Below, in pieces: positions 3,449-41,796 of a stretch of 64,000 nucleotides of DNA; positions within the stretch are counted from its first letter, which is position 1, and every line of letters begins with the position of its first letter. Both the position numbers and the translations under genes were made by a program. The stretch comes from a bacterium (GTDB lineage Bacteria; Vulcanimicrobiota; Vulcanimicrobiia; Vulcanimicrobiales; SCRA01). A model generated the notes under the pieces. It was not told the DNA's origin. It saw only the letters and a list, made by a program, of their open reading frames with translations, and did no database searches. The stretch is from the NCBI GenBank assembly GCA_004297985.1, contig SCRA01000044.1:14262-78261 (forward strand). Reading direction: 5' to 3'.

Positions 3449-4579
3449 ATGCTCTTCCGCAAGCCCCAAGTCCGCATCGCAGTTTGGATCGCCGCGGGCG
3501 TGCTCATCCTCGCCGTGGGCTACCGCCTCTTGGGCGGCGCCGTCCTCGACCGCCTCCAGCACCAAGCCGCCATGCAGTCCGCGCAGAGCGCGTTCGGCAG
3601 CCACAAGCTCAACGTCTTGATCCTGGGCTACCAGGATGACGAGGGTACTTCGGATACCGTCATCCTCGCGCACCTCGACGTCGACCGGCGTACGGGCACG
3701 CTGGTCTCGATCCCGCGCGACAGTTGGGTGGCGATCCCCGGCCACGGACATTGGAAGATCAACGCGGCGATGGGTTACGGCGGGCCCCAACTCGCCGCGA
3801 AGGTGATCGGTGTGCTCACCGGCGCGCCCATCGACGCGACGATCGCCATTCAACCCGAGGGGGCGGCGCAGATCGTCGACGCCATGGGCGGTCTCAACGT
3901 GGACGTCGACGAGACCATGAACTACGACGACAACTATGGCCGGCTGCACATCCATCTCAAGAAGGGCGAGCAGTACCTGACCGGGAGCCAAGTCGTAGGT
4001 TACATGCGCTTCCGCCACGATGCCGCCTCCGACTGGGGGCGCATGCACCGTCAGCAGCAGGTGCTTACGGCGATGATGAATCAGCTCAGCCAGCCGCAGA
4101 ACTGGGCAAAGCTCCCGCGCCTGCTCCAATTCGCGCGCAAAGACCTCAAGACCACGCTCTCCGGCGGCCAGCTTGCCGCCCTGCTCGAGATCTACCGCGG
4201 CGTCCCTCAGGACAACATCCGCACCTTCACTCTTCCCGCCAAAGCCGGCTGGGTCGGCGATGCCTCGGTGGTCTTCGTGGATCAGCGCTGGGCGAAGCTC
4301 ATCGGCCGATTCGTCTTCACCAAGAACGAGCCTCCGCAGGATCAGGTGCTGGTGGCCAACGCTACCGGCAACACCGAACTCGACAAGACGCTCATCGGTG
4401 CGATGCGCGGAGGCGGATGGAACGTGCAAACCTTCGTCGACGAGTCGGCGAAGCCGGCGAGTCTGGTCCTGGGTTCCTCACCGGCGGCCCGCGCGCTCGC
4501 GCAGGCGTTCGCCGTCAAGCAGACGCCGAGCGCGAGGACGACACTCGTCCTGGGCGAGGACCTGGCACCCGGCGTCTAG
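3449..4579 (+). CDS. LCP (LytR-CpsA-Psr) family cell-envelope protein with LytR_C tail
   Basis: N-terminal TM helix. LCP core LNVLILGYQDDEGTSDTVILAHLD...LVSIPRDSWV. C-terminal VLVANATGNTELDK...LVLG is LytR_C-like. Confidence 0.85.
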   Translation: MLFRKPQVRIAVWIAAGVLILAVGYRLLGGAVLDRLQHQAAMQSAQSAFGSHKLNVLILGYQDDEGTSDTVILAHLDVDRRTGTLVSIPRDSWVAIPGHGHWKINAAMGYGGPQLAAKVIGVLTGAPIDATIAIQPEGAAQIVDAMGGLNVDVDETMNYDDNYGRLHIHLKKGEQYLTGSQVVGYMRFRHDAASDWGRMHRQQQVLTAMMNQLSQPQNWAKLPRLLQFARKDLKTTLSGGQLAALLEIYRGVPQDNIRTFTLPAKAGWVGDASVVFVDQRWAKLIGRFVFTKNEPPQDQVLVANATGNTELDKTLIGAMRGGGWNVQTFVDESAKPASLVLGSSPAARALAQAFAVKQTPSARTTLVLGEDLAPGV

Positions 4580-4670
4580 CGGGGCGTTTCGCGAGGGACG
4601 CAACCAGGCGTTTAGCAATTCTGCGAACGGGGTACCGTCGGAACATAGCGCCCTGTGAAGGGAGTCCGGC

Positions 4671-5270
4671 ATGTTCGCTCGGGATCCGCTCTTTTGGCGC
4701 GCCGGCGCGGTCAGTTCCCTGATCGTGACGCTCGTCGTTCTGGCGATGCTCACCACCGACACGCTCCGCGTCATCACGGCCGGCGGGCAGAACGTGCCCA
4801 CCTACACCGTGATCAACCACCAGATCGGCTACGAGTACGTCACCGACCGCAACGAGTACATGCCCACCATCGGTGGGCAGGAGCCGCTCTTCGGAAAGAT
4901 CTATAGCCCCGCGCAAGCCGAGGCACTGGTGCGCCATGGCAAGCTCGTCATCCAGAGCCGCGCGTGTCTGGACTGCCATACCATGTTCGGCACCGGCGCC
5001 TACTATGCGCCGGACCTCACCAAGGCGTGGCTCGATCCCGCGTGGGAGCACCTATGGATGCCGATGACCGGCACCCATACGCGCGCCGACGCAATCGCTG
5101 CGTTCCTCCAGCACCCCGAGCAGTATCCCACGTGGACCCGTGAGATGCCCAACCTGCACCTCACGCTGGACGAGGCGCAAGCGGTGGTGGCCTACCTCAA
5201 GTGGGTCTCCGCGGTCAACACGAACGGCTTCCCGTACGGCTTCAAGACGGCCGCCGCGGGGGGCACCTAA
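4671..5270 (+). CDS. norC: Nitric oxide reductase cytochrome c subunit NorC
   Basis: One N-terminal TM helix and a single haem-c site CLDCH followed by TMFGTGAYYAPDL. The C-terminus MPNLHLTLDEAQAVVAYLKWVSAVNTNGFP closely parallels canonical NorC. Confidence 0.8.
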   Translation: MFARDPLFWRAGAVSSLIVTLVVLAMLTTDTLRVITAGGQNVPTYTVINHQIGYEYVTDRNEYMPTIGGQEPLFGKIYSPAQAEALVRHGKLVIQSRACLDCHTMFGTGAYYAPDLTKAWLDPAWEHLWMPMTGTHTRADAIAAFLQHPEQYPTWTREMPNLHLTLDEAQAVVAYLKWVSAVNTNGFPYGFKTAAAGGT

Positions 5271-5284
5271 AAGAGAGGCACGGC

Positions 5285-6709
5285 ATGCAAGAGCGCCTCA
5301 GTTTTCCCGAATCGCAGAGCCTGGCCCTCAAGTACTTCACCGTCTCCGTGGTGCTCTTCGGTATCGTGGTCGTGGCCGGCCTGTTGGCGGCGATCGACTA
5401 CGTGCATCCGCAGTTCCTCTATCCCGCGCTGCCCTTCAGCATCCTCAAGATCCTGCATATCGACGTGCTGATCATCTGGATCCTGATGGCCTTCATGGGG
5501 GCGCTCTTCTGGTTGCTTCCCGCGGAGTACGGGCGGGAGCTGGTGGGCCTCAAGCTCGCCAACATCATCTTCTGGATCTTCTGCGCCACGGTGCTCGTGG
5601 TCGCCGCCATCTTCGTCTTCGTGCAGGTCGGCCCGGGCACGGAGAAGACGCTCTGGCTCGTCAATCAAGGACGTAAGTACGTCGAGGAACCGCGCTGGGC
5701 GGCGATCATCGTGGCCATCGGCGTCGCCGTCTTCGTCTACAACATCGTGGGAACCGCTATCGCCAGCAAGCGCGTCACGGGCGTGGTCTGGGTGGTCATC
5801 CTCAACCTCGTGCCGCTCTTCTTCCTCTACCTCATCGCCTTCCCGGCACCGACCAACATCTCCGTCGATCAGTTCTGGTGGTGGTGGCTGGTGCACTTCT
5901 GGGTCGAGGCGACCTGGGAGGTGATGATCGGCTCGATCGTGGCGCTGGTGCTGATGCGCCTGATGGGCACCTCGCGCAGGATCGTGGAGACCTGGCTCTA
6001 CATCGAAGTGGCGCTGGTGTTGGCCACCGGCGTCTTGGGTATCGGCCACCACTACTTCTGGATGGGGGCGCCGGCCTACTGGCTGGGGATCGGCGGCTTC
6101 TTCTCCGCCCTCGAGCCGCTGCCGCTCTTGGGTATGGTGGTGCATGCCGTCTACGACGCCGGCGAGCACCACATGAAGATGACCAACGAGCCCGCCTTCT
6201 ACTGGATGATGGCGGAGGCATTCGGCAACTTCATCGGTGCCGGTATCTTCGGTTTCATGATCACCCTGCCGCAGATCAACCTCTTCGCGCACGGCACGCA
6301 GTGGACGGCATCCCACGGCCACTTCGCCATGTGGGGAGCCTACTGCGGCGTGATCTCGGTGATCTACCTCGCGCTGCAGGACCACCGCCGCGCTGCGCTC
6401 TTCGCCGGTGCGACGTGGAAGTGGGGTTTCGCCCTGCTCAACGGCGGGATGATCGGCATGGTCGGCTCGCTGATGATGGCGGGAATGGCGCAGGCCTTCT
6501 ACGAGCGCGCGATCGGCGGATCGACGTTCAACGCCTTCGTCTCGGCGTCGTCGTCTCCGTGGTTCATCGAGGGCTTGGGAATGCGGCTGGTCTTCGCCAT
6601 CGTCTTCACCGCGGGGTACGTCGTTCTCGCCTACGATCTGCTCACCATCGGGAAGCGCGTGCTCGAGACCTCGCGGGCCGGCGGCCCGGCGCGCGCACCG
6701 GCGGAATGA
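5285..6709 (+). CDS. norB: Nitric oxide reductase large subunit NorB (cNOR type)
   Basis: ATG at 5285 with an AGAGAGG RBS upstream. 12-TM haem-copper superfamily protein with WWWLVHFWVEATWEV and HGHFAMWGAYC motifs typical of NorB. Earlier in-frame residues of ORF 5201.. overlap norC and look non-coding. Confidence 0.85.
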   Translation: MQERLSFPESQSLALKYFTVSVVLFGIVVVAGLLAAIDYVHPQFLYPALPFSILKILHIDVLIIWILMAFMGALFWLLPAEYGRELVGLKLANIIFWIFCATVLVVAAIFVFVQVGPGTEKTLWLVNQGRKYVEEPRWAAIIVAIGVAVFVYNIVGTAIASKRVTGVVWVVILNLVPLFFLYLIAFPAPTNISVDQFWWWWLVHFWVEATWEVMIGSIVALVLMRLMGTSRRIVETWLYIEVALVLATGVLGIGHHYFWMGAPAYWLGIGGFFSALEPLPLLGMVVHAVYDAGEHHMKMTNEPAFYWMMAEAFGNFIGAGIFGFMITLPQINLFAHGTQWTASHGHFAMWGAYCGVISVIYLALQDHRRAALFAGATWKWGFALLNGGMIGMVGSLMMAGMAQAFYERAIGGSTFNAFVSASSSPWFIEGLGMRLVFAIVFTAGYVVLAYDLLTIGKRVLETSRAGGPARAPAE

Positions 6710-6719
6710 GGGGAGATCC

Positions 6720-7004
6720 ATGCTCCCGTGGCAAGTGCTCGCAACCTCGAGCCTGCTGGGGGCTTTCGCCTTCATGGGCGGCGGCTATGCCGTGCTCTTC
6801 GTCGCCGCCATGCTCTCCGAGCGCCGGCCCCTGACGCGCATCGCCTATGCCTGCTACGCCGCGCAGTGCGCGTGCCTGCTTACCGTACTCTGGATATCTC
6901 CGTTGGAGGTAATCTGGAAGATCTTTCTCATCGGCAGTTGTGCGGCGTACGCCGTCATCCCGCCCATCACGTGGCGATACCTGCGCCGGCTCCACGGCGC
7001 ATGA
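6720..7004 (+). CDS. Small 3-TM membrane protein downstream of norB (possible NorH-like accessory subunit)
   Basis: 94 aa and hydrophobic. GGGGAG RBS about 6 nt before the ATG, 10 nt after the norB stop. No family motif recognised. Confidence 0.45.
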   Translation: MLPWQVLATSSLLGAFAFMGGGYAVLFVAAMLSERRPLTRIAYACYAAQCACLLTVLWISPLEVIWKIFLIGSCAAYAVIPPITWRYLRRLHGA

Positions 7005-18078: not shown

Positions 18079-18999
18079 CTAGAGAAACGAGGAGAGCTTC
18101 GCGCGATCGATGCGCGCGATGCGTCCGCCCTCGAGCTCGATGGCTCCGGCATTCTCTAACTCGAAGAGAGCACGCGCCGCTACTTCGCGGACGGTCCCCG
18201 CCGCGATTGCCAGTTGGCTCTGGCTCATACGCCGCGCCGACGAGAGCACCGGGGCCAGCCCTTGATCCGGGGGCGCGTAGGGGAGCAGCGCGCGCGCCAC
18301 GCGCTCCACCGTGGAGCGCCCCGCTAAGAACTCCAGGCGCTCGGCCAGCGCGCGACCTCGCTGTGCGCAGAGCAGCGCGATCGAGCGTACCAAGCCGATA
18401 TCGCTCTCCATCTGTTTGAGCACGACGTTGCGCGGCACGGCGACGATGCGCGCCGCGCCGAATGGCGGTGCCACGCGCCCCAACATCGTCCCGCCATCGA
18501 CCAGCGAGAGCTCTCCAAACGTCTCGAAAGGGAGGAACTCGAAGAGCAGGCGCTCGCGGCCGTTGGCCGAGCCGGCGATCATCCCTAGCGTTCCCTCGCG
18601 AACGAAGCCGAGGTAGGGCCACTGCGATCCCTGCTCGTTGAGAGCTTCACGGTGCGGGATAGAACGCTCGAGCGCGTTGGCGACGAAGGCCGCGCGCGTC
18701 TCGTCGCTGCAACCCTCCAGCGCGGCGCAGCGGCCTAAGAAATCTTCCAAGCTGCCGTCGCGCCCTTCTGAGTCGATGCGCCGGATCGTCACTACCCAGT
18801 CGTCATCGCTGTGCTGCCGCTGGAGCCAGACGAAGCGCCCTTCGCGCTGACGGTCGAACTCAAAGCGCAGTGGACGCGGCTCATGATCGGTGGAGAGCTG
18901 GAGCTCCTCCCCCGGGCGCAATGCATCGAACGCCGCGAAGATCTCCCGGTGCCGCAGCCAGGTGGGGATAGAACGAACGTCGATGAGGTGCGCGATCAC
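18079..18999 (-). CDS. Crp/Fnr-family transcriptional regulator with N-terminal DUF2249 domain
   Basis: The N-terminal ~75 aa (LIDVRSIPTWLRHREIFAAFDALRPGEELQLSTDHEPRPLRFEF) closely parallel the stand-alone DUF2249 protein at 21007-21255. A cNMP-binding-like barrel and a C-terminal HTH (SQSQLAIAAGTVREVAARAL) follow. Confidence 0.78.
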   Translation of the reverse strand: MIAHLIDVRSIPTWLRHREIFAAFDALRPGEELQLSTDHEPRPLRFEFDRQREGRFVWLQRQHSDDDWVVTIRRIDSEGRDGSLEDFLGRCAALEGCSDETRAAFVANALERSIPHREALNEQGSQWPYLGFVREGTLGMIAGSANGRERLLFEFLPFETFGELSLVDGGTMLGRVAPPFGAARIVAVPRNVVLKQMESDIGLVRSIALLCAQRGRALAERLEFLAGRSTVERVARALLPYAPPDQGLAPVLSSARRMSQSQLAIAAGTVREVAARALFELENAGAIELEGGRIARIDRAKLSSFL

Positions 19000-19048
19000 G
19001 TCCAGGTGCTTCCGCTGAGGGCGGCGCCATCCTTTTACCGCCCGCGGT

Positions 19049-19366
19049 TCAACGACCGAGCTGGCGATGGGCCTCCTCGCTCATCCGCTCAGGCGACCAA
19101 GGGGGCTCGAACGTTACCTTCACGTTAACGTCGCTGACCCACGGCACGGAGGTCACGGCACGCTCGACGTCCATCTTGATCGTATCGTGCATCGGGCAGC
19201 CCGGCACGGTCAGCGTCATCACGATGTCCACGTGGCCGTTGCTGTCTTCGACGCCGATCCCGTAGATCAAACCGAGGTTGACGATATCGATGCCAAGTTC
19301 AGGATCGATCACGGTCGTCAGTTGCTGCAGCACTTCCTCGTGCAGCGGCGTCATCTCAGCACTCAT
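19049..19366 (-). CDS. DUF59/MIP18-family metal-sulfur cluster assembly factor
   Basis: VIDPELGIDIVNLGLIY...TLTVPGCPMHD is the hallmark DUF59 motif. ATGA overlap with the upstream gene. Confidence 0.82.
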   Translation of the reverse strand: MSAEMTPLHEEVLQQLTTVIDPELGIDIVNLGLIYGIGVEDSNGHVDIVMTLTVPGCPMHDTIKMDVERAVTSVPWVSDVNVKVTFEPPWSPERMSEEAHRQLGR

Positions 19367-19581
19367 GCGTCACGCTCCACGGTCAACAGGTACCCATCTC
19401 CGTTAGGTTCACAGGTATAGCGCAGGCCGCGCGTCTCCAACTCCGGAAACAGAAAGCGCGGCTGACGCTCCATGATGGCCGTGAGCTTTCCGGGGCCCTG
19501 CATATTGTCCAGCGCCTCGAGAATGCGAATCATGGGCTCCGGCGGATGGAGCCCACGGTTGTCCAGATGGATGTCGCTCAT
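19363..19581 (-). CDS. DUF2249/TusA-like small protein (subtype B)
   Basis: 72 aa from the ATG at 19579-19581: MSDIHLDNRGLHPPEPMIRILEALDNM..., a TusA-like layout with His in place of the TusA Cys. Only the C-terminus of track ORF 19363..20700 is credible. ATGA overlaps at both ends. Confidence 0.68.
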   Translation of the reverse strand: MSDIHLDNRGLHPPEPMIRILEALDNMQGPGKLTAIMERQPRFLFPELETRGLRYTCEPNGDGYLLTVERDA

Positions 19582-20777
19582 GCCTTCAACCCCACGTATT
19601 GCCAGCCCAGTCGGGCGAGCACCGCCACCGCGCCGATGCCGCCTGCCGCGTAGACTACGGCCGCCATGCGCAACGCCTCCGGAGCGAACGCCGTCGAGAG
19701 CGCCGCACCCAGCGCACCGACTACCAGCAATGCCAGGCTCACATTCGATGCGCGCTCCGGCACGGCATTCCCTAGCGGCGGAAGTTTCGCGGTCGGATGC
19801 ATACGCCGAGCATACTCCCAGGCCAAGAAGCCTACCACCTTGTAGGAGTAGCCCAAGATCGAGAGCGAGAGCCAACCCAGGATCGCGAAGGCGACGGCGG
19901 CAGGCGCCTTGTCCGGATGCCAGGTGGCACCCAGAGTGCAGCCCGCTGCGAACAGTGCGAAGACCCAGGCTGCAGAGGCGTAGCGCAGGCTCACGTCGAT
20001 CTTCTTGCGCATGCGCTTTTTCAACGTGTGCAGGTGCACGACGACGGCGGCGATCACCGATACGATCGCTATGATCGACCCCGCACGCATGTACCAGATG
20101 CTGAGGAACACCAGTCCGCCTGCCACACCGGCGACGGCGATCGTCCACTGCGCGCTGCGCGTCCAACGTCCTTCGGTCGTATGCGCGAGCGAGAACATCG
20201 GCACGAAGCGATAGGAGACCGCGAAGACGAACGTGCTGGCGAAGGCGATGACCACGAGCGAGGCGTGCGTTGGCGCCAGGAGCAACGCGCCCACGGCGGC
20301 GCGTCCGTCCAAGGCTAGGGCCATCACTGCGCCGATGCCGGCCGCTGCGATGAAAGCCACGGTCGCCGCGATCACGGCGGCGCGCGTCTGTGCCTCGAGC
20401 GGGGCGGTACGGATGCGATTGATGGTCCAGATCCCCCACGCCGTCACGCCCACGAAGAGCAGCGGTCCCGCGATCGAGAAGAGGACATGGATACCGTGGA
20501 AGCCGCCCAGCAGGAGCACGAAGCCCAGCACCAACGGCGCCGAGAGGAGCATGACGGTGCGCGCCGGAGCCGCCTTGGCACCCGTGAGCACCGGAACGAG
20601 CTGGTTGGAGGCGCCCACGACCGCCATGACGATGAAAGCGGCGAACGCATGAAGCGTGAGCAGCGAGGCGCCGTTCACGATTAACGAGACACAGCCGCAA
20701 AGAAAAAACGCCAACGCAACGGCGAGGAGCGCCCCGCTCCCCGCCGGATCGCTGACGTTGTCACCCGACGAGATCAT
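19578..20777 (-). CDS. 12-TM integral membrane protein of unknown family (distant haem-copper-oxidase-like helix II string)
   Basis: 399 aa from the ATG at 20775-20777 (ATGA overlap with the upstream gene). About 12 hydrophobic helices. TM2 reads LHAFAAFIVMAVVGASNQLVPVLTGAKAAPAR. Confidence 0.7.
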   Translation of the reverse strand: MISSGDNVSDPAGSGALLAVALAFFLCGCVSLIVNGASLLTLHAFAAFIVMAVVGASNQLVPVLTGAKAAPARTVMLLSAPLVLGFVLLLGGFHGIHVLFSIAGPLLFVGVTAWGIWTINRIRTAPLEAQTRAAVIAATVAFIAAAGIGAVMALALDGRAAVGALLLAPTHASLVVIAFASTFVFAVSYRFVPMFSLAHTTEGRWTRSAQWTIAVAGVAGGLVFLSIWYMRAGSIIAIVSVIAAVVVHLHTLKKRMRKKIDVSLRYASAAWVFALFAAGCTLGATWHPDKAPAAVAFAILGWLSLSILGYSYKVVGFLAWEYARRMHPTAKLPPLGNAVPERASNVSLALLVVGALGAALSTAFAPEALRMAAVVYAAGGIGAVAVLARLGWQYVGLKA

Positions 20778-21001
20778 GACTTCGGCGCGAAGCGGATATG
20801 AAACTCTCCGTCTGTCACGCGCGTGCACTCGTGGCCAAAACCCTTACGATCCATCACGCGGTAGAGCGGGGTGGGTTCGAACGTATTGATGAGCAGGAAC
20901 GTCTGCCCCGGTTCGAGGGAATCGACCGCATCCATGATCGCCTGATACGGCTCCTCACCACGTTCGTGGTAGGGGCGTACATCGAGGACTCTCGGTTCCA
21001 C
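20774..21001 (-). CDS. DUF2249/TusA-like small protein (subtype B)
   Basis: 75 aa from the GTG at 20999-21001: VEPRVLDVRPYHERGEEPYQAIMDAVDSLEPGQTFLLINTFEPTPLY. Starts 5 nt after the previous stop. Confidence 0.62.
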   Translation of the reverse strand: MEPRVLDVRPYHERGEEPYQAIMDAVDSLEPGQTFLLINTFEPTPLYRVMDRKGFGHECTRVTDGEFHIRFAPKS

Positions 21002-21006
21002 GTCAG

Positions 21007-21255
21007 TTAGTCCGCAACGCGCTCGCCGAGTACAGCGGTCTTCTTGATGTCGACGAGCCAGATGTCGGGCCCCTTCTGCGCGTAATCCCACGAGAACGTG
21101 TTGGGGTAGTCGTGGTCGAGTTCGAAGCGCAGCGGGCGCGGGTCGTGGTCGTTGATGATGCGCAACGTGTCGCCCAGCGCGAGCGCCTCGTATTTCTCGA
21201 AGATGGTGGTGTGCTTGCGGCCCGGCGGAAGCGGGCGAACATCGAGTTCGATCAT
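21007..21255 (-). CDS. DUF2249 domain protein (subtype A)
   Basis: 82 aa from the ATG at 21253-21255: MIELDVRPLPPGRKHTTIFEKYEALALGDTLRIINDHDPRPLRFEL. The rest of track ORF 21007..21741 is Arg-rich shadow. Confidence 0.75.
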   Translation of the reverse strand: MIELDVRPLPPGRKHTTIFEKYEALALGDTLRIINDHDPRPLRFELDHDYPNTFSWDYAQKGPDIWLVDIKKTAVLGERVAD

Positions 21256-21302
21256 GCGGCCATCGTACGTCCGCCGGGGCGAGGGGGACAGCGACCCGAG
21301 TC

Positions 21303-22532
21303 TCACGCCGAATGAACGGGCAGTCTCTTCAGATCGACCGATTCGTCGGAAAGCAGCGCGCGATCGATCGCCGGGCGCGTTCGCAGCAGCCGTTTGGCCG
21401 CCGAGAGGTCCTTGAAGCGATTGACGGCGAGGCAAGCCTGCAGTCGTCCGCCCATGAGATAGAACGCGCTGAACGAGCCGCTCTCGGGGCTTGCGCGCAG
21501 CACCAGATCGCTCCAGCGCGGCGCGTGGCCTACGTATTGTATCGAGCGATCGTACTGGTCGGACCAGAAGAACGGCACCGGCGCGTACGGCTCGGTCGCA
21601 CCGAGCATGCACCTCGCGGCCCAGACGCCGTGATTTTGCGCATGATCGAAGTGTTCGACGCGCAACCGTCCGCCCCACGCTGGGTGGGGCCAGTTCGCCA
21701 CGTCGCCCGCGGCGTAGAGATCGGCGACGCTGGTGCGGCACTGTTCGTCCACCACGATGCCGTCCTGCACGTCGAGCGTTGCGCCCTCCACAACCGGCAC
21801 GTTCGGCGTAACGCCCACGCCGATCACAACCAGGTCGCAGGGTACCTCCTCACCATTGGTGAGGAGCGCCGCCTCGACGCGCTCCGCCCCACGCAACGAA
21901 ACCACACCCACGCCCACGCGCACGTCGACGCCGTGATCGCGGTGCATGGAGACGATCCACTGGCCCAAACGCTCACCGATGGCCGCGGCAAGCGGCGTGG
22001 CGACATCGATCATCGTGACGCGGCAACCCAGCGCGCGCGCCGAGGCCGCGACTTCGCAGCCGATGAAGCCCGCTCCAACCATCAGCACCTTCGGCCGTGA
22101 GGCAAGCTCCTTGGCGAGCGCGTCGGCGTCGCGCAGCGTCCGAAGGTAGTGGAGGCCGGGCAACTCCGCTCCCGGCACCCGCAGCCGACACACCGTGGAG
22201 CCCGTGGCGATCAGCAACCGATCGTACGAGAGGGCGCTGCCGTCGGAGAGCAGGGCACGGTGCACCGGCGCGTCGATGCGCTCGACGCGCGTGCCCAGAC
22301 GCAGCTCGATCCGCTGCTCCGCGTAGTACGACTCCGGACGCAGGTAGAGCTCGTTGCCGCCCTTCTCGCCGCGCAGCCGCTCCTTGGAGAGCGGCGGGCG
22401 TTCGTAGGGGCGTTCCGCCTCTTCGCCCACCAGCACGACGCGCCCGGAATATCCTTGCTGGCGCAGCGCCTCCGCGGCGCGTCCGCCGGCGAGGCCCGCC
22501 CCGACGATGACCACCGTGGCCGGCTCACTCAT
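21303..22532 (-). CDS. FAD/NAD(P)H-dependent ferredoxin/rubredoxin-reductase-type oxidoreductase
   Basis: From the ATG at 22530-22532: VVIVGAGLAGGRAAEAL (FAD GxGxxG), VLMVGAGFIGCEVA (NAD GxGxxG), YAAGDVA and a C-terminal reductase_C-like domain. Confidence 0.85.
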   Translation of the reverse strand: MSEPATVVIVGAGLAGGRAAEALRQQGYSGRVVLVGEEAERPYERPPLSKERLRGEKGGNELYLRPESYYAEQRIELRLGTRVERIDAPVHRALLSDGSALSYDRLLIATGSTVCRLRVPGAELPGLHYLRTLRDADALAKELASRPKVLMVGAGFIGCEVAASARALGCRVTMIDVATPLAAAIGERLGQWIVSMHRDHGVDVRVGVGVVSLRGAERVEAALLTNGEEVPCDLVVIGVGVTPNVPVVEGATLDVQDGIVVDEQCRTSVADLYAAGDVANWPHPAWGGRLRVEHFDHAQNHGVWAARCMLGATEPYAPVPFFWSDQYDRSIQYVGHAPRWSDLVLRASPESGSFSAFYLMGGRLQACLAVNRFKDLSAAKRLLRTRPAIDRALLSDESVDLKRLPVHSA

Positions 22533-22558
22533 GGGCAGGATGCACGGATACGGGAACG

Positions 22559-22589
22559 CACACGAACATGTGGCGGCTACGTTCGTGTG
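22559..22589. promoter_or_regulatory. Inverted repeat upstream of the reductase/DUF2249 operon
   Basis: CACACGAAC (22559-22567), a 13-nt spacer, then GTTCGTGTG (22581-22589), 27-57 nt upstream of the start at 22532. Could be an operator or a 5'-UTR hairpin. Confidence 0.3.
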
Positions 22590-22774
22590 GGCGCTGCCGA
22601 ATCTCCTGGCACGCTCCCACGACGTCGCGGCACCAGCAGGTCTCGCGTCGCCCTTGCCATCTCGATGTCTTCGCGAGCGTGGATCACCAAGGTCCGCGTC
22701 CGCGAGGCCCAACCTACTGTCTCGGACCTTCAAGCCAGCCTTGGCAAGCGTGCTCGCTGAGTAGTGGCCGAGGC

Positions 22775-23239
22775 TCATCCACCGCTTCGCACCCCATCCT
22801 CGAGCACCAGACGCAGCCGCTGGAGCAGACGGCGAACGGTAATCTCGGCCACGGCGTTCCCGCCGACTCTGTCGATCATCAGCCCCAAGGGGCCCAGCGG
22901 CGGGGTATAATCACCCAAAATTGCCAACTGGGTCCGCGTAGCCGAGAGCGGAACCACTTCGATCCAGCCGCGGAACTCCGGGAAGGCGCGGCTATCGGTG
23001 ACGCGCCATACAATCGGCATCACGGTGGCATAGGTACGCTGTTCGGGCTCGCCGAGGTTCATCAGCACCTTACGCGTGAAGCGCCCCAGCCGCGGCAGGT
23101 GCAGGTCCTCGAAGGGGACATCGAGCTCGTACCACATTCCCGGCTCACCGGAGTCTTCGGGAGCAAGGGCACGCCGAAGTCGATCCACGATCTGATCGGG
23201 CGCGCAGGCCACCTCGCTTTCGTAGAATACATGCGCCAT
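22775..23239 (-). CDS. Uncharacterised paralog family member X1 (~155 aa, SRPBCC-like by inference)
   Basis: Shares with X2-X4 the pattern FPxFxGxhxVxP...L.hxGxYxPPxGxxGxxxDxxxGxxIAxxTxRxxL (here FPEFRGWIEVVPLS...LGDYTPPLGPLGLMIDRVGGNAVAEITVRRLL). Confidence 0.6.
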   Translation of the reverse strand: MAHVFYESEVACAPDQIVDRLRRALAPEDSGEPGMWYELDVPFEDLHLPRLGRFTRKVLMNLGEPEQRTYATVMPIVWRVTDSRAFPEFRGWIEVVPLSATRTQLAILGDYTPPLGPLGLMIDRVGGNAVAEITVRRLLQRLRLVLEDGVRSGG

Positions 23240-29814: not shown

Positions 29815-30181
29815 GGCGCGTGTCTTCTCCTACGCGGCGGCGATTTCATGCAATCGATGGGGCGAAGCCTCGCCTGCCATGCCATAGCCTGCTCCACGCT
29901 CCTTTGCGCCGCGTACCACGTCCTCATCCCGGGCCCCGGGATCGCGAAGCCGCGCAAGACGTCCGAGCTCGAATCTGCGAATGCATGGGGAACCCTGCGT
30001 CCGCTCAAGCGACCACAGTCACTCCGGGGCAACCTCTGCAAGACTATGATGGGCGCGTGTGCGTTTCCATCGACCTGCTGCGCGTGGAGGGGCCCCTAGC
30101 GCTTCGGCGCGCTCCCTCCACTCCGGCCCCCTCCCGGCGGCAGGCGCCGGTACCCCACGGCGGAAAACCACGCGTACAACC

Positions 30182-31186
30182 ATGAGCGAGAGAGCAACCA
30201 CCCCCAGCACCGCCGTCGAGGCCGGTACCATCCTCCTTGCCAACCCACGCGGCTTCTGTGCGGGCGTCGAGCGCGCCATCGATATCATCAATCGCCTGTT
30301 GGATATCCACGACGGGCCGATTTACGTTCGCAAGGAGATCGTCCACAACCGCGACGTCGTGCAACGCTTCCAGGCACGCGGCGTGGTCTTCGTGGAAGAC
30401 GTCGCCGAGGTGCCGCCGGACTCGCTGCTCGTCTTCAGCGCCCACGGCGTCTCTCCCGAAGTGCGCCGCAGCGCGCGCGAACGCGGCCTCCAAGTCATCG
30501 ATGCGACCTGTCCGCTGGTCTCCAAGGTTCACTTGGAAGCGATCAAGTTCGCCAACGAAGGCCTCTACGTGATCCTCGTCGGCCACAAGTACCATGACGA
30601 GGTGGCCGGGACGCTCGGCGAGATTCCCGGGCGAATCGGCCTGGTGGAGAACGTCGAACAGGCACGCGCCTGCGAGGTGCCCGACCCGCGGCGCGTCGCC
30701 GTCGTCACGCAGACGACGCTCAGCATCGACGACACGCGCGAGATCATCGAGACGCTCAAGGCACGATTCCCGGCGCTGGTTACCCCGGCTAGGGACGATA
30801 TCTGTTATGCCACGCAGAACCGCCAAGAGGCGGTCAAGGCTTTGGCTGACGAGACCGACCTCGTGCTGGTGGTCGGCTCGGAGAACAGCTCCAACTCCCA
30901 GCGTCTGTGCGAGAGCGCGAAGCAGACGGGCACTGCCGCCTACCTCATCGACCACCCTCATGCTATCGATCCTGCATGGGTCGTGGGGAAGCGCTCGATC
31001 GGCGTCACCGCCGGTGCCTCCTCCCCCGAGCACCTCGTGCAGAGTATCCTCGCACGCCTCCAAGAGCTCGGCACCTTCGAAGTGCGCGACTTCGGCAAAC
31101 GCGAGCCGGCGATCATCTTCACGCCGCCGCGCGAGCTGATGCGTCTGGAGGCGGAGGCCGCCGACGATTCGAGCCAGACGCGCTAG
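30182..31186 (+). CDS. ispH: 4-hydroxy-3-methylbut-2-enyl diphosphate reductase
   Basis: ATG at 30182: LANPRGFCAGVERAI, VHNRDVV, FSAHGVSP, DATCPLVSKVH, ICYATQNRQ and SSNSQRL motifs. Confidence 0.92.
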   Translation: MSERATTPSTAVEAGTILLANPRGFCAGVERAIDIINRLLDIHDGPIYVRKEIVHNRDVVQRFQARGVVFVEDVAEVPPDSLLVFSAHGVSPEVRRSARERGLQVIDATCPLVSKVHLEAIKFANEGLYVILVGHKYHDEVAGTLGEIPGRIGLVENVEQARACEVPDPRRVAVVTQTTLSIDDTREIIETLKARFPALVTPARDDICYATQNRQEAVKALADETDLVLVVGSENSSNSQRLCESAKQTGTAAYLIDHPHAIDPAWVVGKRSIGVTAGASSPEHLVQSILARLQELGTFEVRDFGKREPAIIFTPPRELMRLEAEAADDSSQTR

Positions 31187-38563: not shown

Positions 38564-39568
38564 CTACTTCCCTCCTTTGCGAATTCGCGCCACATCGCTC
38601 GGCGTTACCGTCGGTGCGTGGTTACCCCACGAGGTCCGCTCATGATCGACGATAGCCGCGATCTGCTCGTCCGTGAGCTGTGTCGCGAAGGCAGGCATCT
38701 GCCCCCCGTATGCCGTGCCGCCGATGCTCTTGCCGTGCAGCCCGTCGAGCACGATCTTCACGTGATCGGTAGGATTGGCGGTGGTGACCACCGGATCGTC
38801 GGCCAGCGGTGGGAAGGCCCCCGCGACGCCCGTGCCCTGCGCTCCGTGGCAGGCAGCGCAGTTGGCCCCGTAGAGGTTCGGGCCCGTGGAAGCGTAGTCG
38901 AAGCCCTTGGCGGCGGTTCCGCCCGCGGCGGCTCCCTGGCCGGCTGCGGGCTTGGCGGGCGCCATCGCTTGCTCGGACTCCCGCGCGGCCTTCTCCATGT
39001 CCGGCGGCAGAGCCGGCTGCTTGAGCGAGAGCAGATAGGCCACCAGCGCCTTGGCCCGAGCCGTCGGGATCACCACGCCGCTCTTGGGGGCATAGGCGGG
39101 CGGGAGCGCGACGGGAGTCTCCCCTTGCGGCGTCGTCGGGACGACCTTGAAGAGCCAGTGATACGACGGCATGATCGACTGCGGCACGACCGCACGCGGA
39201 TCGTAGAGGTGGATGTACTGCCAGACCTCGGCGGGCTGGCGCACGCCGACATTGGTGAGATCGGGGCCGGTGCGCTCGGAGCCCAAGAGCTCCGGTGTCT
39301 GATACGCGTAGTCACCCGGCGCCGATGGGCGGCCGAAGACTTTGTCCATCGCTAGCGGGCGCACTTGCTGGGTGTGGCAGTAGGAGCAGCCCTCCGCGAC
39401 ATAGACCGCGCGCCCGGCCTGCTGCTCCGCCGTCAATGGGATGACGCCCGGCCCCGGTGCCGTCTTCGAGAGCGCCATGCCCGGAAGCACGCCCATCAGG
39501 ATCGCCAGCACGAGATAGACCAGCCCCGATCCTCCAGCGATGGCGACGAGACGTCCGTCGCGACTCAT
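38564..39568 (-). CDS. ccoO: cbb3-type oxidase CcoO fused to a C-terminal monohaem cytochrome c domain
   Basis: N-terminal CcoO: TM helix, CSYCHTQQVRP, GPDLTNVG, YIHLYDPR. After an Ala/Gly/Pro-rich linker comes a second haem site CAACHG with ...GGQMPAF. Two CxxCH sites in total. Confidence 0.85.
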   Translation of the reverse strand: MSRDGRLVAIAGGSGLVYLVLAILMGVLPGMALSKTAPGPGVIPLTAEQQAGRAVYVAEGCSYCHTQQVRPLAMDKVFGRPSAPGDYAYQTPELLGSERTGPDLTNVGVRQPAEVWQYIHLYDPRAVVPQSIMPSYHWLFKVVPTTPQGETPVALPPAYAPKSGVVIPTARAKALVAYLLSLKQPALPPDMEKAARESEQAMAPAKPAAGQGAAAGGTAAKGFDYASTGPNLYGANCAACHGAQGTGVAGAFPPLADDPVVTTANPTDHVKIVLDGLHGKSIGGTAYGGQMPAFATQLTDEQIAAIVDHERTSWGNHAPTVTPSDVARIRKGGK

Positions 39569-40962
39569 CAGGCCACCTCCGAGATCGGCTCGACTCTGCT
39601 GATCACGCGCTCACCGCCGCTCAGCATGAACCACACGTTCCACGCGAAGACCAAGTGGCTGATGAACATCAGCGATCCGCCGATCGAGCGCCACAGCCAA
39701 TCCGGCGCGATCGCCGTCACCGAGTCGATGAACGGCGCGCCGCTCATCCAGACCAGGCCCTGGATCGTGCCGCCGATCGAGAGCGCCAGAATGTAGATCG
39801 CCATGCCGACGGTGGCGAGCCAGAAGTGCAGACCGGCCAGCGTGAGTGAGGGAGCGCGCCCGGTGGCACGCGGCACCAAGGCGTAGATGCCGCCCCAGAT
39901 TCCGAACGTGATGAACGTGTACATTGTCAGGTGGGAGTGGCCCACCGTGAAGTTCGTGAGGTGCCAGACGGCCTGCAGCGAGCGGAACGCCTCGAAGGTT
40001 CCCTGCGTCGATCCCAGCAGGTAGCCCAGTACGCCGACGAAGACGAACGGCAGCGCATACGAGCGACGTACCTGCTCCCAGCGCCCGCGCATCGTGAGCA
40101 AGAAGTTCGCGCTGCCCGCCCAGACCGGCACCAGCATGGCCACGCTGAAGACGATAGCGAGCGTCTGCAGCCACCATGGTAGCGGACTGAAGATGAAATG
40201 GTGTGCGCCGATGATCGGGTAGAACACGAGGTTCGTCCAGAACGCGAGAACGCCCAAGGCGTACGAGTAGATCGGGCGGTTGAGCAACTTCGGCAGCACG
40301 TAGTAGAAGAGTCCCAACGTGAGCGGGGTGAACCACATGCCGACGGCGTTGTGCATGAAGAAGCCTTGCACCGCCACTTGTCCCAGACCATACTGATACA
40401 GCGGGATGAAGGCCACGGTCGAGAGGATGAGCGTCCAGATGATGCCGCCCATCGTGTACCAGTTGGAGAGATAGATGTCGTCATCTTTCCGCCTGGCGAC
40501 CGTCATGATGAGGTTATACGCGGCGGTGAGGATAGCGATCAGGAGGAGCGCCTCTATCCACCAGATCCACTCGCGATACTCTTGGTCTCCGTTGTTGAAG
40601 CCTAGGTCGAGCGCGACCGTCCCGAGCGCGGCGGCGACGTTGAAGAGCGCGAGCGTGACCCACCCCAGCTTGATGCTGTACAAGCGTGTGGCGCAGGTCT
40701 TGCAGGCGACGTAGAACACCAAACCCACGAGCGCGATGCTGGCCCATGCGTAGAACGTATCGTTGGTATGGATCGGCCGGAGTCGACCGAACGAGAAGTA
40801 GGGGCTGGTCAGGAACTCCGGGTAGGCAAACTTGAAGGCAACGATGAGGCCGACGGCCGTCGACAGCACGAGCCAGCCGGTAGCAAACGCGATATATGCC
40901 CCAAGGAGGCTCGTGATCTCGCGATCGTCCTCGTCCTGTAGGGCAACGCTTCTGGCAATCAC
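39568..40962 (-). CDS. ccoN: cbb3-type cytochrome c oxidase subunit I
   Basis: 464 aa, 12+ TM helices. IHTNDTFYAW, GAHHF and VGHSHLTMY histidine motifs. Its stop shares a base with the ccoO start. Confidence 0.9.
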   Translation of the reverse strand: MIARSVALQDEDDREITSLLGAYIAFATGWLVLSTAVGLIVAFKFAYPEFLTSPYFSFGRLRPIHTNDTFYAWASIALVGLVFYVACKTCATRLYSIKLGWVTLALFNVAAALGTVALDLGFNNGDQEYREWIWWIEALLLIAILTAAYNLIMTVARRKDDDIYLSNWYTMGGIIWTLILSTVAFIPLYQYGLGQVAVQGFFMHNAVGMWFTPLTLGLFYYVLPKLLNRPIYSYALGVLAFWTNLVFYPIIGAHHFIFSPLPWWLQTLAIVFSVAMLVPVWAGSANFLLTMRGRWEQVRRSYALPFVFVGVLGYLLGSTQGTFEAFRSLQAVWHLTNFTVGHSHLTMYTFITFGIWGGIYALVPRATGRAPSLTLAGLHFWLATVGMAIYILALSIGGTIQGLVWMSGAPFIDSVTAIAPDWLWRSIGGSLMFISHLVFAWNVWFMLSGGERVISRVEPISEVA

Positions 40963-40995
40963 CCGGATATAGTACGGGGCGCCCTTACCGCCACC

Positions 40996-41796
40996 CTACG
41001 ACTTCGGTAGCACGTTTTTGGCCGGCCCCAATTCGCTCGCGCGCCGTGCCGTCGCCAATAACGCATCGGCGAACCCCACGGCCGAGCGCGCGCGCTCCAA
41101 CTCCATGAGTCCAGCGATCGTGCAGCCTCCCGGCGTCGTGATGCGTTTGCGCAGGACGGCGGGATGCTCCGCGCTCTGCGCCAGCCAAGCGCCCGTCGAG
41201 CGGAAGACCTGCGCGGCCACGGCCAGAGCGCTGTCCGCGGGCAGTCCCAGCGTAAGCGCCGCATCGGTGAACCCCTCGATCAGCCGCAGCACGAGCGCTG
41301 GCGCAGAGGCCGTCAGTGCGGTGAAGGCGTCAAGGCTCCCCTCCGGCACGTCGAAAACGGTTCCCAGCGGCGCGAAGAGAGCCCGCACATGCGCAGAGGC
41401 ACCGTCGGCGACCGCCGTCACCCCTTCGTTGAACGAACAGAGTACGTTGGGCATCGCGCGCACGATGTCAACGCGGGCGGATATGCGGCGTCGCAGCGCA
41501 TCGCGGTCGACGCCGGCCATCACGCTCACCAGCGTGCCCCCGCCGTCCCCCCACGCCTCGAGGGCCCCCGCAACCTCCGGCCACTGGTGGGGCTTGACCG
41601 CCACGATGACCGTGCGTGTTCCAACCAGGGCTTCGTCGAGCGAGGTTCCCGCAGGGATGCGAAAGCACTCGCGCACCATACCGGCGCTGGCCTCGCTCTT
41701 GGTCACGGCGCGCCCCGGCAGGCGCCCCGCGCGTTGCCAGCCGCGCAGCAGCGCCGAGCCCAGCTTCCCGGCGCCGAGTAGCGTCACATCCTCCAT
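40996..41796 (-). CDS. proC: Pyrroline-5-carboxylate reductase
   Basis: LLGAGKLGSALLRG Rossmann motif and a C-terminal RKRITTPGGCTIAGL motif. GGGAG RBS. Confidence 0.8.
   Translation of the reverse strand: MEDVTLLGAGKLGSALLRGWQRAGRLPGRAVTKSEASAGMVRECFRIPAGTSLDEALVGTRTVIVAVKPHQWPEVAGALEAWGDGGGTLVSVMAGVDRDALRRRISARVDIVRAMPNVLCSFNEGVTAVADGASAHVRALFAPLGTVFDVPEGSLDAFTALTASAPALVLRLIEGFTDAALTLGLPADSALAVAAQVFRSTGAWLAQSAEHPAVLRKRITTPGGCTIAGLMELERARSAVGFADALLATARRASELGPAKNVLPKS

Follow-up and report, generated by a model that had tools for sequence, protein, structure and literature searches.

The closest described system to the one analyzed here is drpAB of Thermus thermophilus, which lies downstream of narCGHJIKT and was treated as bicistronic, the genes further downstream not being considered (Chahlafi et al. 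2018, PMC6282519). Expression of drp depends on the CRP-like protein DnrT and on anoxia together with nitrate; drp mutants derepress dnrST and nar and have low nitrate reductase activity at normal subunit levels; and DrpB is membrane-associated without having a transmembrane (TM) segment (PMC6282519). In Haloferax, DUF2249 genes are induced 3 to 8 log2 units under denitrification, and a fusion of one DUF2249 domain with an Fe-S carrier P-loop NTPase is described (PMC11218638). An association of DUF2249 with the heme-copper oxidase (HCO) superfamily was noted by Pei, Li, Kinch & Grishin in 2014, according to PMC11218638. Here, we analyze a minus-strand operon of DUF2249 genes in a 64,000-nucleotide stretch (hereafter, the window) of contig SCRA01000044.1 from a member of the Vulcanimicrobiota. 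Judged by sequence comparison, this operon is the counterpart of an extended drp cluster and represents the Vulcanimicrobiota (Eremiobacterota) version of a multi-phylum module. In our best reading, which we place slightly above even, it encodes a Drp-type accessory module for sensing and maturation in low-oxygen/N-oxide respiration.

Gene calls based on the list of open reading frames (ORFs) and on Pfam and NCBIfam scans gave seven minus-strand genes (18079-22532), all of them at the coordinates claimed in a preliminary description of this DNA. The features of the locus are as follows.

22533-22690, minus strand: ackA 3'-end remnant and spacer, aligning with the intact ackA 3' end and the ackA-reductase spacer of the related locus L006
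21303-22532, minus strand: reductase, 409 aa, ferredoxin-NAD(P)+ reductase-type flavoprotein (Pfam Pyr_redox_2 and Reductase_C)
21291-21304, minus strand: operator box GAGAC-TCGG-GTCGC, Crp/Fnr-type, overlapping the reductase stop codon
21262-21267, minus strand: -10 element TACGAT, separated by 6 nt from the ATG of D1
21007-21255, minus strand: D1, 82 aa, DrpA-type (Pfam DUF2249, 87 bits)
20774-21001, minus strand: D2, 75 aa, GTG start (Pfam DUF2249, 68 bits)
19578-20777, minus strand: membrane protein (HCO-like), 399 aa, 12 TM helices
19363-19581, minus strand: D3, 72 aa (Pfam DUF2249, 47 bits; TusA, 23 bits, sub-threshold)
19049-19366, minus strand: DUF59 protein, 105 aa, PGCP motif (Pfam FeS_assembly_P, 81 bits)
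18079-18999, minus strand: regulator, 306 aa, DUF2249 (residues 6-74, 71 bits) followed by a weak cNMP_binding domain and HTH_Crp_2

The three ATGA overlaps reported previously are present in the DNA (20777-20774, 19581-19578 and 19366-19363), as are the gaps of 5 nt between D1 and D2 (21006-21002) and of 49 nt between the DUF59 gene and the regulator gene (19048-19000). D2 is coupled translationally to the membrane protein gene by its ATGA, and D3 has such overlaps at both ends. All four small domains clear the gathering score of Pfam DUF2249 (PF10006, 29.5 bits), in agreement with their earlier assignment. We lean, by a narrow measure, toward a core unit of D1-D2-(HCO-fold membrane protein)-D3-DUF59 together with a DUF2249::Fnr-type regulator, the reductase being excluded.

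The likeness to the Thermus drp cluster extends over the proteins, the gene order and the regulatory site. A tblastn search of plasmids with a member of the broad membrane protein family matched Thermus megaplasmids, Ensifer and haloarchaea. On the plasmid of T. thermophilus JL-18 (L036), the order is narGHJI - MFS - DUF2249 (72 aa) - DUF2249 (273 aa) - 144-aa 4-TM protein - protoglobin - 383-aa protein - DUF59, and the two DUF2249 genes agree with DrpA and DrpB in size, overlap and position (PMC6282519). First, D1 is a homologue of DrpA, and D2 and D3 correspond to the two DUF2249 domains of DrpB: DrpA (72 aa) matches D1 (7e-23), while DrpB (273 aa) matches the D2-type domain in its middle (1e-17) and the D3-type domain at its C terminus (2e-8). 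D1 and the JL-18 protein in the DrpA position share 44% identity (E 2e-24), and H15 and H37 are conserved. Second, HCO-like and DUF59 genes lie just downstream of drpAB: the 383-aa hypothetical protein (hyp383) matches the profile hidden Markov model (HMM) of the membrane protein family (E 4e-88), and the Thermus DUF59 protein matches that of the window (2e-32). Third, a GAC-N4-GTC box precedes both operons, with TTGAC-CCAG-GTCAT upstream of drpA in Thermus, and it is a CRP-like activator that drp needs (PMC6282519).

The two clusters also differ. DrpB is a single protein with an N-terminal DUF1858, whereas D2 and D3 are separate proteins flanking the membrane protein gene, and no DUF1858 was found in either by Pfam. 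That the DrpB domains are split around the membrane protein gene and joined to it by overlapping codons points to a membrane partner that is missing from the Thermus model. Unlike in Thermus, the regulator contains a fused DrpA-type domain, and the nar operon, which is adjacent in Thermus, is not at the window locus. In Thermus, in turn, genes for a 4-TM protein and a protoglobin-domain protein separate drpB from the HCO-like gene (L036, 7482-8758); the 144-aa 4-TM protein matches the HMM of the membrane protein family (E 3e-12) and resembles a single 4-helix unit of the 12-TM family.

A third version of the module is found on plasmid pT173d of Ensifer canadensis (L037), where the order is norB-norQ-norD-hemN / D1 - HCO-like - fused D2D3 - DUF59 ... 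nnrS - nirK. The HCO-like protein matches the membrane protein family at E 4e-76, and in the D2D3 fusion, D2 matches residues 3-77 and D3 residues 98-166. The module thus resides inside a nar island in Thermus and a nor-nir island in Ensifer, and DUF2249 genes respond to denitrification in Haloferax (PMC11218638); the nitric oxide (NO), low-oxygen or metal-center setting suggested in the preliminary description is therefore plausible. As separate observations, the C terminus of the Ensifer D1 orthologue is a Cys-rich tail (SGCDCCCGSSSGH; L037, 4803-5319), and the intergenic region between hemN and D1 contains two TTG-N8-CAA (FixK/NnrR-like) boxes.

Gene-order conservation, the DUF59 protein and the reductase

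The seven window proteins served as queries against ORFs called from 30 related loci; counts are given over 27 non-redundant Vulcanimicrobiota loci. D1, D2 and D3 were each found in 25/27 loci, D1 nearby in variable position, D2 directly upstream of the membrane protein gene in most of them and D3 directly downstream of it. The DUF59 gene (23/27) is usually next after D3. The DUF2249::Crp fusion regulator is present in 13/27 loci, and another Crp-family gene in 6/27. In five distant members (L031-L035), DUF2249 gene(s) lie beside the membrane protein gene in every case, and DUF59 is directly downstream of it in L031, L032 and L035. In L033, a DUF59 gene is found on the opposite strand at a distance of about 2.2 kb, and in L034, DUF59-type genes lie at about 5-6 kb. 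Further neighbors in these five loci are DrpB-like DUF1858-DUF2249x2, hemerythrin(-DUF2249), YwiC, Crp regulators, ApbC/Mrp and a NirK-like gene. With the exception of the reductase, the order is kept among proteins that are just 40-50% identical and also in other phyla. At this level of conservation, the operon is well beyond chance.

The DUF59 protein is a member of the DUF59 family annotated as 'metal-sulfur cluster assembly factor'; its identity as SufT is putative, its scores with the NCBIfam models being 109 against a cut-off of 203 for TIGR03406 and 105 against a cut-off of 143 for TIGR02945. Because its gene is linked (it adjoins the HCO-like gene in Thermus, Ensifer, L031, L032 and L035, in Ensifer within the order given above), the module is tied to metal-center maturation. 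This linkage in 23/27 loci, Thermus and Ensifer is also the starting point for an explanation that we consider rather unlikely, namely a metal-center assembly or repair machine with no regulatory role, in which the membrane protein and DUF2249 carriers would deliver or salvage iron, Fe-S or a heme precursor, the DUF59 protein would place it in respiratory enzymes that NO or O2 had damaged, much as NnrS acts with RIC/YtfE, and the regulator would be a switch alone. Such a machine would fit the hemerythrin, ApbC/Mrp and YwiC neighbors of distant loci, the gene for the [4Fe-4S] enzyme IspH in the L003 cluster and behind a similar box in the window, and the Cys-rich tail of the Ensifer D1 orthologue. 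It would also fit the drpAB mutants of Thermus, which have nitrate reductase subunits with little activity (PMC6282519), and the Fe-S carrier NTPase-DUF2249 fusion of Haloferax (PMC11218638). However, it leaves unexplained why a DrpA-type domain replaces the FNR-type sensor module and why transcription of dnrST and nar changes in the Thermus drp mutants (PMC6282519); moreover, D1 and D2 lack a conserved Cys, and metal binding is putative. Repair overlaps with the sensing and maturation module that we favor and does not exclude it.

The reductase had been taken as the built-in electron donor of the system. Its gene precedes D1 by 47 nt on the same strand, and NCBIfam models of the AndAa/HcaD type score under their cut-offs. 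A homologue occurs in 2/27 loci, adjacent to the operon in L006 alone, and is absent from the other 25/27, including L007, whose proteins are 84% identical, as well as from the Thermus and Ensifer clusters and L031-L035. In L007, the homologue of the window gene at 22775-23239 abuts the D1 promoter directly. In L006 (93%), the order is xfp - ackA - reductase - D1 with an intact phosphoketolase-ackA pair. All that the window retains of ackA is a piece of its 3' end, about 160 nt long, situated between the reductase and the 22775-23239 gene; this remnant marks a recent rearrangement upstream of the reductase. The stop codon of the reductase gene is a TGA inside the operator, and the gene lies upstream of the conserved promoter of the operon. 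Given its absence from 25/27 loci, the flanking ackA remnant and its position relative to the promoter, the reductase is not part of the operon; it is a recent insertion beside it and not a conserved partner, and its proposed role as electron donor is not supported. The idea of a self-contained system thus stands for a conserved and co-regulated gene set from which the reductase has to be removed.

These observations bear directly on a redox chain leading from the reductase through DUF2249 carriers to a 12-TM protein that reduces or detoxifies NO or O2. Such a chain is suggested by the placement of the reductase on the same strand close to D1, by the oxidase/nitric oxide reductase (NOR) fold of the membrane protein and by the NorCB-like and cbb3 oxidase genes in the window. 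We nevertheless regard it as highly improbable in view of the distribution of the reductase, the ackA remnant and the stop codon within the D1 operator, and also because the membrane protein is without the TM7 HH and TM10 HxH motifs and the DUF2249 proteins are without a redox cofactor motif.

As regards the two respiratory gene sets themselves, a cytochrome c gene overlaps a 502-aa COX1-family gene at 4671-6709 (plus strand) and looks like NorCB; the 502-aa protein has the motifs WWWLVHFWVE, HHYFW and HGHF and no NCBIfam match at E<=1e-10. The cbb3 oxidase genes (38564-41060, minus strand) are ccoN (39568-40962) and a fusion of ccoO with a c-type cytochrome domain (38564-39568).

The membrane protein and its small DUF2249 neighbors

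The membrane protein has no Pfam or NCBIfam match. A word-indexed search gave 84 matches in its close subfamily, none with a protein name; the relatives come from Vulcanimicrobiota/Eremiobacterota metagenome-assembled genomes (MAGs) labelled Baltobacteraceae or Vulcanimicrobiaceae, with one exception labelled Dormibacterota. In a search with a 27-sequence profile HMM, the family comprised 1266 clusters (50% identity) at E<=1e-3 and 474 at E<=1e-10, with members of mostly 400-450 aa. Pfam gave no match for these proteins either, except that distant members have sub-threshold matches to Pfam COX1 (18-32 bits against a cut-off of 34.8 bits), partly shifted by one 4-helix unit.

An AlphaFold2 model (predicted local distance difference test [pLDDT] 85, predicted TM-score [pTM] 0.89) has the 12 helices counted in the preliminary description. 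With this model, the top matches in a Foldseek search of the PDB were solely catalytic subunits of HCOs and NORs, at probability 1.00: CcoN (3mk7; E 3e-5, TM-score 0.68), NorB (4xyd, 3o0r), qNOR and COX1, with TM-scores ranging from 0.58 to 0.69. The membrane protein is accordingly predicted to have the fold of HCO subunit I. Residue conservation was scored over 128 close and distant members: H43 (TM2) and H171 (TM6) are invariant, and Q59, P62, G149, P193-M-F, R255, K313 and W320 are near-invariant. Position 310 (TM10) is Tyr in the window subfamily; the wider family has Met, Gln, Tyr or His there. When the broad 128-sequence profile was aligned by hhalign with the window NorB-like protein (5201-6709), the two were in register over the full length (probability 63%, E 7e-5), H43 falling on the TM2 heme-b His and H171 on the His of the WWxVH FeB/CuB motif. 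With the same profile, the alignment with CcoN was shifted by one 4-helix unit and that with A-type COX1 was not significant; the close-subfamily profile gave no significant alignment with the window CcoN and NorB-like proteins and, against PDB sequences, spurious TAL-effector repeat matches alone.

The membrane protein thus resembles CcoN, NorB, qNOR and CoxA in its predicted 12-helix fold and in the register of the TM2 and TM6 His residues, but differs from them in its size of about 400 aa, in the absence of Pfam, NCBIfam and PDB-sequence matches and, above all, in its ligands. It has no counterparts of the TM7 HH and TM10 HxH motifs and no His at all in TM7 or TM10, such that at most 2/6 of the canonical His ligands (TM2, TM6, TM7 x2, TM10 x2) are kept. 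A canonical binuclear center is therefore impossible, and we rejected the membrane protein as a canonical or novel NO or O2 reductase because the catalytic ligands are missing. By the positive-inside rule, applied to the sequence and the helix boundaries of the model, the basic TM4-5 and TM8-9 loops (KKRMRKK) are inferred to face the cytoplasm, as are H199 and H248, two residues characteristic of the window subfamily.

NnrS is a heme- and copper-containing 12-TM protein of NO-stress regulons that is about 400 aa long and occurs in denitrification islands. The membrane protein resembles it in size, in the number of TM helices and in its denitrification-island setting, the Ensifer NnrS gene lying about 1.3 kb from the module. 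However, we rejected an assignment to NnrS: there was no Pfam NnrS match at E<=0.1 and none at E<=1 among 10 family members, and Ensifer encodes NnrS separately beside its HCO-like protein.

D1, D2 and D3 form three separate orthologous groups. D1 and the N terminus of the regulator match each other reciprocally (phmmer, 1e-13 to 1e-16) and both carry (K/R)H and DH(D/E)PRPLR; the subtype that had been proposed for these two domains is therefore real, and the regulator does reuse the DUF2249 type of the operon as its N-terminal domain. The conserved residues of D1 are K14-H15 and D36-H37-D38-P-R-P-L. The second proposed subtype, uniting D2 and D3, falls apart, as these two proteins barely match each other (E about 1e-4). 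Its description as Cys-less is correct for the TusA active-site Cys, which is missing, and incorrect in that D3 has a conserved Cys57 in Y-x-C-x-P. D3, with a conserved LDNRGLxPPEPM and Cys57, is the most TusA-like of the small proteins, although its score with the TusA family (PF01206, 23 bits) stays below the cut-off of 28.6 bits. At the position of the catalytic CPxP motif of TusA, D3 has PPEP, D1 has K-H and D2 has GEEP. The residues conserved in these DUF2249 proteins are His, Asp and Glu, and D1 and D2 are without a conserved Cys. In the absence of the catalytic CPxP Cys, and with His, Asp and Glu as the conserved residues, persulfide chemistry is unlikely.

A word-indexed homologue search with D1 returned just 11 close relatives. 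D1 was modelled with AlphaFold2 from an alignment of D1 orthologues and regulator N termini. The model (pLDDT 90) is a two-layer alpha/beta sandwich with the order beta-alpha-beta-alpha-beta-beta. No DUF2249 structure was found among PDB sequences by phmmer. In Foldseek searches of the PDB, the model matched SirA-like 3hz7 (query TM-score 0.69, root-mean-square deviation 2.0), HP1264 (2lxr, 0.72), TusA (3lvj_C/3lvk_B, 0.52-0.59) and YeeD in the YeeE-YeeD complexes 8j4c and 8k1r (0.63-0.65), with weak E-values of 0.02-0.4. Thus, D1 is predicted to have a TusA-like fold at the clan level. This predicted fold and the sub-threshold TusA match of D3 liken the small proteins to TusA, SirA and YeeD, from which D1 and D3 differ in having no catalytic CPxP Cys. 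YeeE-YeeD (8j4c) also provides a precedent for a TusA-fold protein that partners a membrane protein.

By analogy with this pair (TsuA/TsuB, thiosulfate uptake), the operon might encode a transporter of a small molecule or ion, such as nitrite, another N-oxide or a metal, with TusA-fold capture partners. The resemblance of D1 to YeeD, the invariant polar residues within the membrane (Q59, K313, Y189/Y312) and the small genes flanking the membrane protein gene with overlapping codons would agree with transport. Yet the HCO fold is, to our knowledge, not a transporter fold, two invariant His residues occupy the HCO heme and CuB/FeB positions, the Foldseek E-values of D1 are weak, and neither the DUF59 linkage nor the regulator fusion is explained; we therefore consider a transporter improbable.

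Regulator, operator and promoter

Of 83 regulator homologues scored, about 77 have the DUF2249::Crp fusion; one, an NCBI MAG protein named "DUF2249 domain-containing protein", is 100% identical to the window regulator. HTH_Crp_2 scores 35.6 bits in the regulator, above the cut-off, and cNMP_binding 25.7 bits, just under the cut-off of 27.5 bits; the latter domain is recorded in most homologues. By these sequence features, a cNMP-type effector domain and a C-terminal Crp helix-turn-helix, the regulator classifies as a member of the Crp/Fnr family. It is not an FNR proper: its N terminus is a DUF2249 domain with no conserved Cys, and its recognition helix, TVREVAAR, has REVAAR where relatives have KEVVSR. 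The regulator resembles FNR, Dnr and NnrR in the combination of a cNMP-like domain with HTH_Crp_2, in the E--SR motif carried by its relatives, in the 5-4-5 geometry of the box, in the GTCAA half-site and in the class II position. It differs from them in having a DUF2249 N-terminal sensor in place of the Cys cluster of FNR or the heme pocket of Dnr and, in the window clade, in having E--AR and the GAGAC/GTCGC box. The fusion of a DrpA-type domain to a DNA-binding regulator argues for cytoplasmic action of this domain, exerted directly on the regulator, and is at odds with the periplasmic nitrate-sensor model.

The 47-nt spacer between the reductase and D1 is conserved in relatives without the reductase. 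The box is centered about 42.5 nt upstream of the D1 ATG (21255), TACGAT follows 23 nt beyond the box, and the ATG follows 6 nt after TACGAT, such that a leaderless D1 mRNA is implied. GAGAC-N4-GTCGC is found at an equal distance before D1 in L001, L006, L007 and L008, distant loci have ATAAC-N4-GTCAAT, TAGAAT and ATG before the first operon gene, and in about 25 loci the start codon is preceded, at a distance of 6-8 nt, by TACGAT or TAGAAT. A relaxed composite pattern had 33 matches in 485 kb, most of them before the first operon gene, and 3 matches in the window against 0.46 expected. No -35/-10 pair was found before D1 in a sigma-70 scan, as expected if the promoter depends on an activator, and terminator-like sites were at chance level. 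Helix and box co-vary: KEVVSR goes with the GTCAAT box and, in the window clade, REVAAR with the GTCGC box, the GAC/GTC core being kept while the helix and the outer bases of the half-sites change together.

Similar sites occur elsewhere. In the window (G+C content 64-69%), an IspH/LytB ORF (30009-31186, plus strand; [4Fe-4S] enzyme, NCBIfam 425 bits) lies behind GCGAC-N4-GTCAC and TATGAT; because its IspH domain begins at residue 57, both the start codon and the link to the promoter are uncertain. The L003 cluster includes a LytB gene (4471-5451), between the regulator gene and the D1D2 gene. A weak box-like site with TACTAT at about 41008, before ccoN, may be due to chance. A gene for a YwiC-like membrane protein in L008 (3778-4602, minus strand) lies behind a GAGAC-N4-GTCGC box and a -10 element, and in L032 the gene next after DUF59 is a YwiC gene (6189-6920); YwiC may be a further regulon member. 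In L009 (6705-7004) and L028 (5692-5994), the D2 slot is held by a Cys-containing ORF of 99-100 aa that has no Pfam match and sits behind the same promoter motif as the operon. Within the operon, the spacer between the DUF59 and regulator genes (19000-19048) contains a GGGCGG...CCGCCC hairpin as well as a GAGAGGA-like, purine-rich element conserved across L001 and L006-L008; it may serve as an attenuator, an internal promoter or a processing site.

Proposed mechanism and its implications

Based on these findings, we suggest the following model for the sensing and maturation module. At low oxygen or in the presence of N-oxides, the regulator would bind the box as a class II activator, a DrpA-type DUF2249 domain with its conserved His and Asp serving as sensor in place of the Cys cluster of FNR. 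The membrane protein, as modelled, would bind no more than one or two cofactors, close to the outer face, via H43, H171 and Tyr310, and would act as a platform or sensor rather than as a reductase. The cytoplasmic TusA-fold proteins D2 and D3 may dock on its conserved positive inner loops, which would explain how DrpB associates with the membrane without a TM helix. D1 and the D1-like domain of the regulator would receive the same ligand or signal, and the DUF59 protein would load or repair an iron or iron-sulfur center. The output would be tuned expression and maturation of respiratory metalloenzymes.

Several points weigh against this model. The docking of D2 and D3 is deduced from gene order and the YeeE/YeeD analogy, and the mapping of the His residues comes from a predicted fold and an hhalign alignment at just 63% probability. 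We know of no ligand for any DUF2249 domain and of no experiment on the proteins of the window locus. No nar genes are present among roughly 45 window ORFs scanned, and the nearest N-oxide gene, in the NorCB-like pair, is about 11 kb off. The box alone is not enriched in the GC-rich window (146 matches with <=2 mismatches against 170 expected); the evidence for it is positional conservation alone, and we therefore claim no regulon from box matches. Finally, DrpA of Thermus was reported to be periplasmic (PMC6282519), in conflict with a role in the cytoplasm, though it has no signal peptide.

Parts of this picture are already known: the component families are annotated, the association of DUF2249 with HCO homologues was noted in 2014 (as reported in PMC11218638), and the genetics of DrpA and DrpB has been described (PMC6282519). 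In the literature examined, we found neither the split DrpB, the DrpA::FNR fusion and the co-variation of operator and helix nor the linkage of drpAB to HCO-like and DUF59 genes across four phyla.

A broader proposal, which we put forward tentatively and hold to be doubtful, is that DUF2249 is a TusA-fold domain that senses a ligand, the signal being related to iron, NO or redox state, and that together with DUF59 it forms a membrane-coupled checkpoint. As an equally speculative part of this proposal, the domain would occur in two forms, a free DrpA/DrpB type docking on a cofactor-poor membrane protein derived from an oxidase, and the built-in sensor of FNR-type activators, which would control transcription directly. 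Denitrification islands commonly encode DUF2249 proteins and non-catalytic oxidase-fold membrane proteins, and DrpA and DrpB of Thermus are the subject of the sole genetic study; the window locus offers a defined operator and promoter and takes a misleading reductase out of the picture. If the proposal is true, the checkpoint would link the maturation state of respiratory metal centers to the transcription of genes for anaerobic respiration, and it would be widespread, with more than 1000 sequence clusters and occurrence in Vulcanimicrobiota, Deinococcota, Pseudomonadota and Halobacteria. It would also define an unrecognized class of FNR-type activators, call for a revision of the periplasmic nitrate-sensor model of DrpA, and provide the first function for an HCO-fold protein that has lost catalysis.

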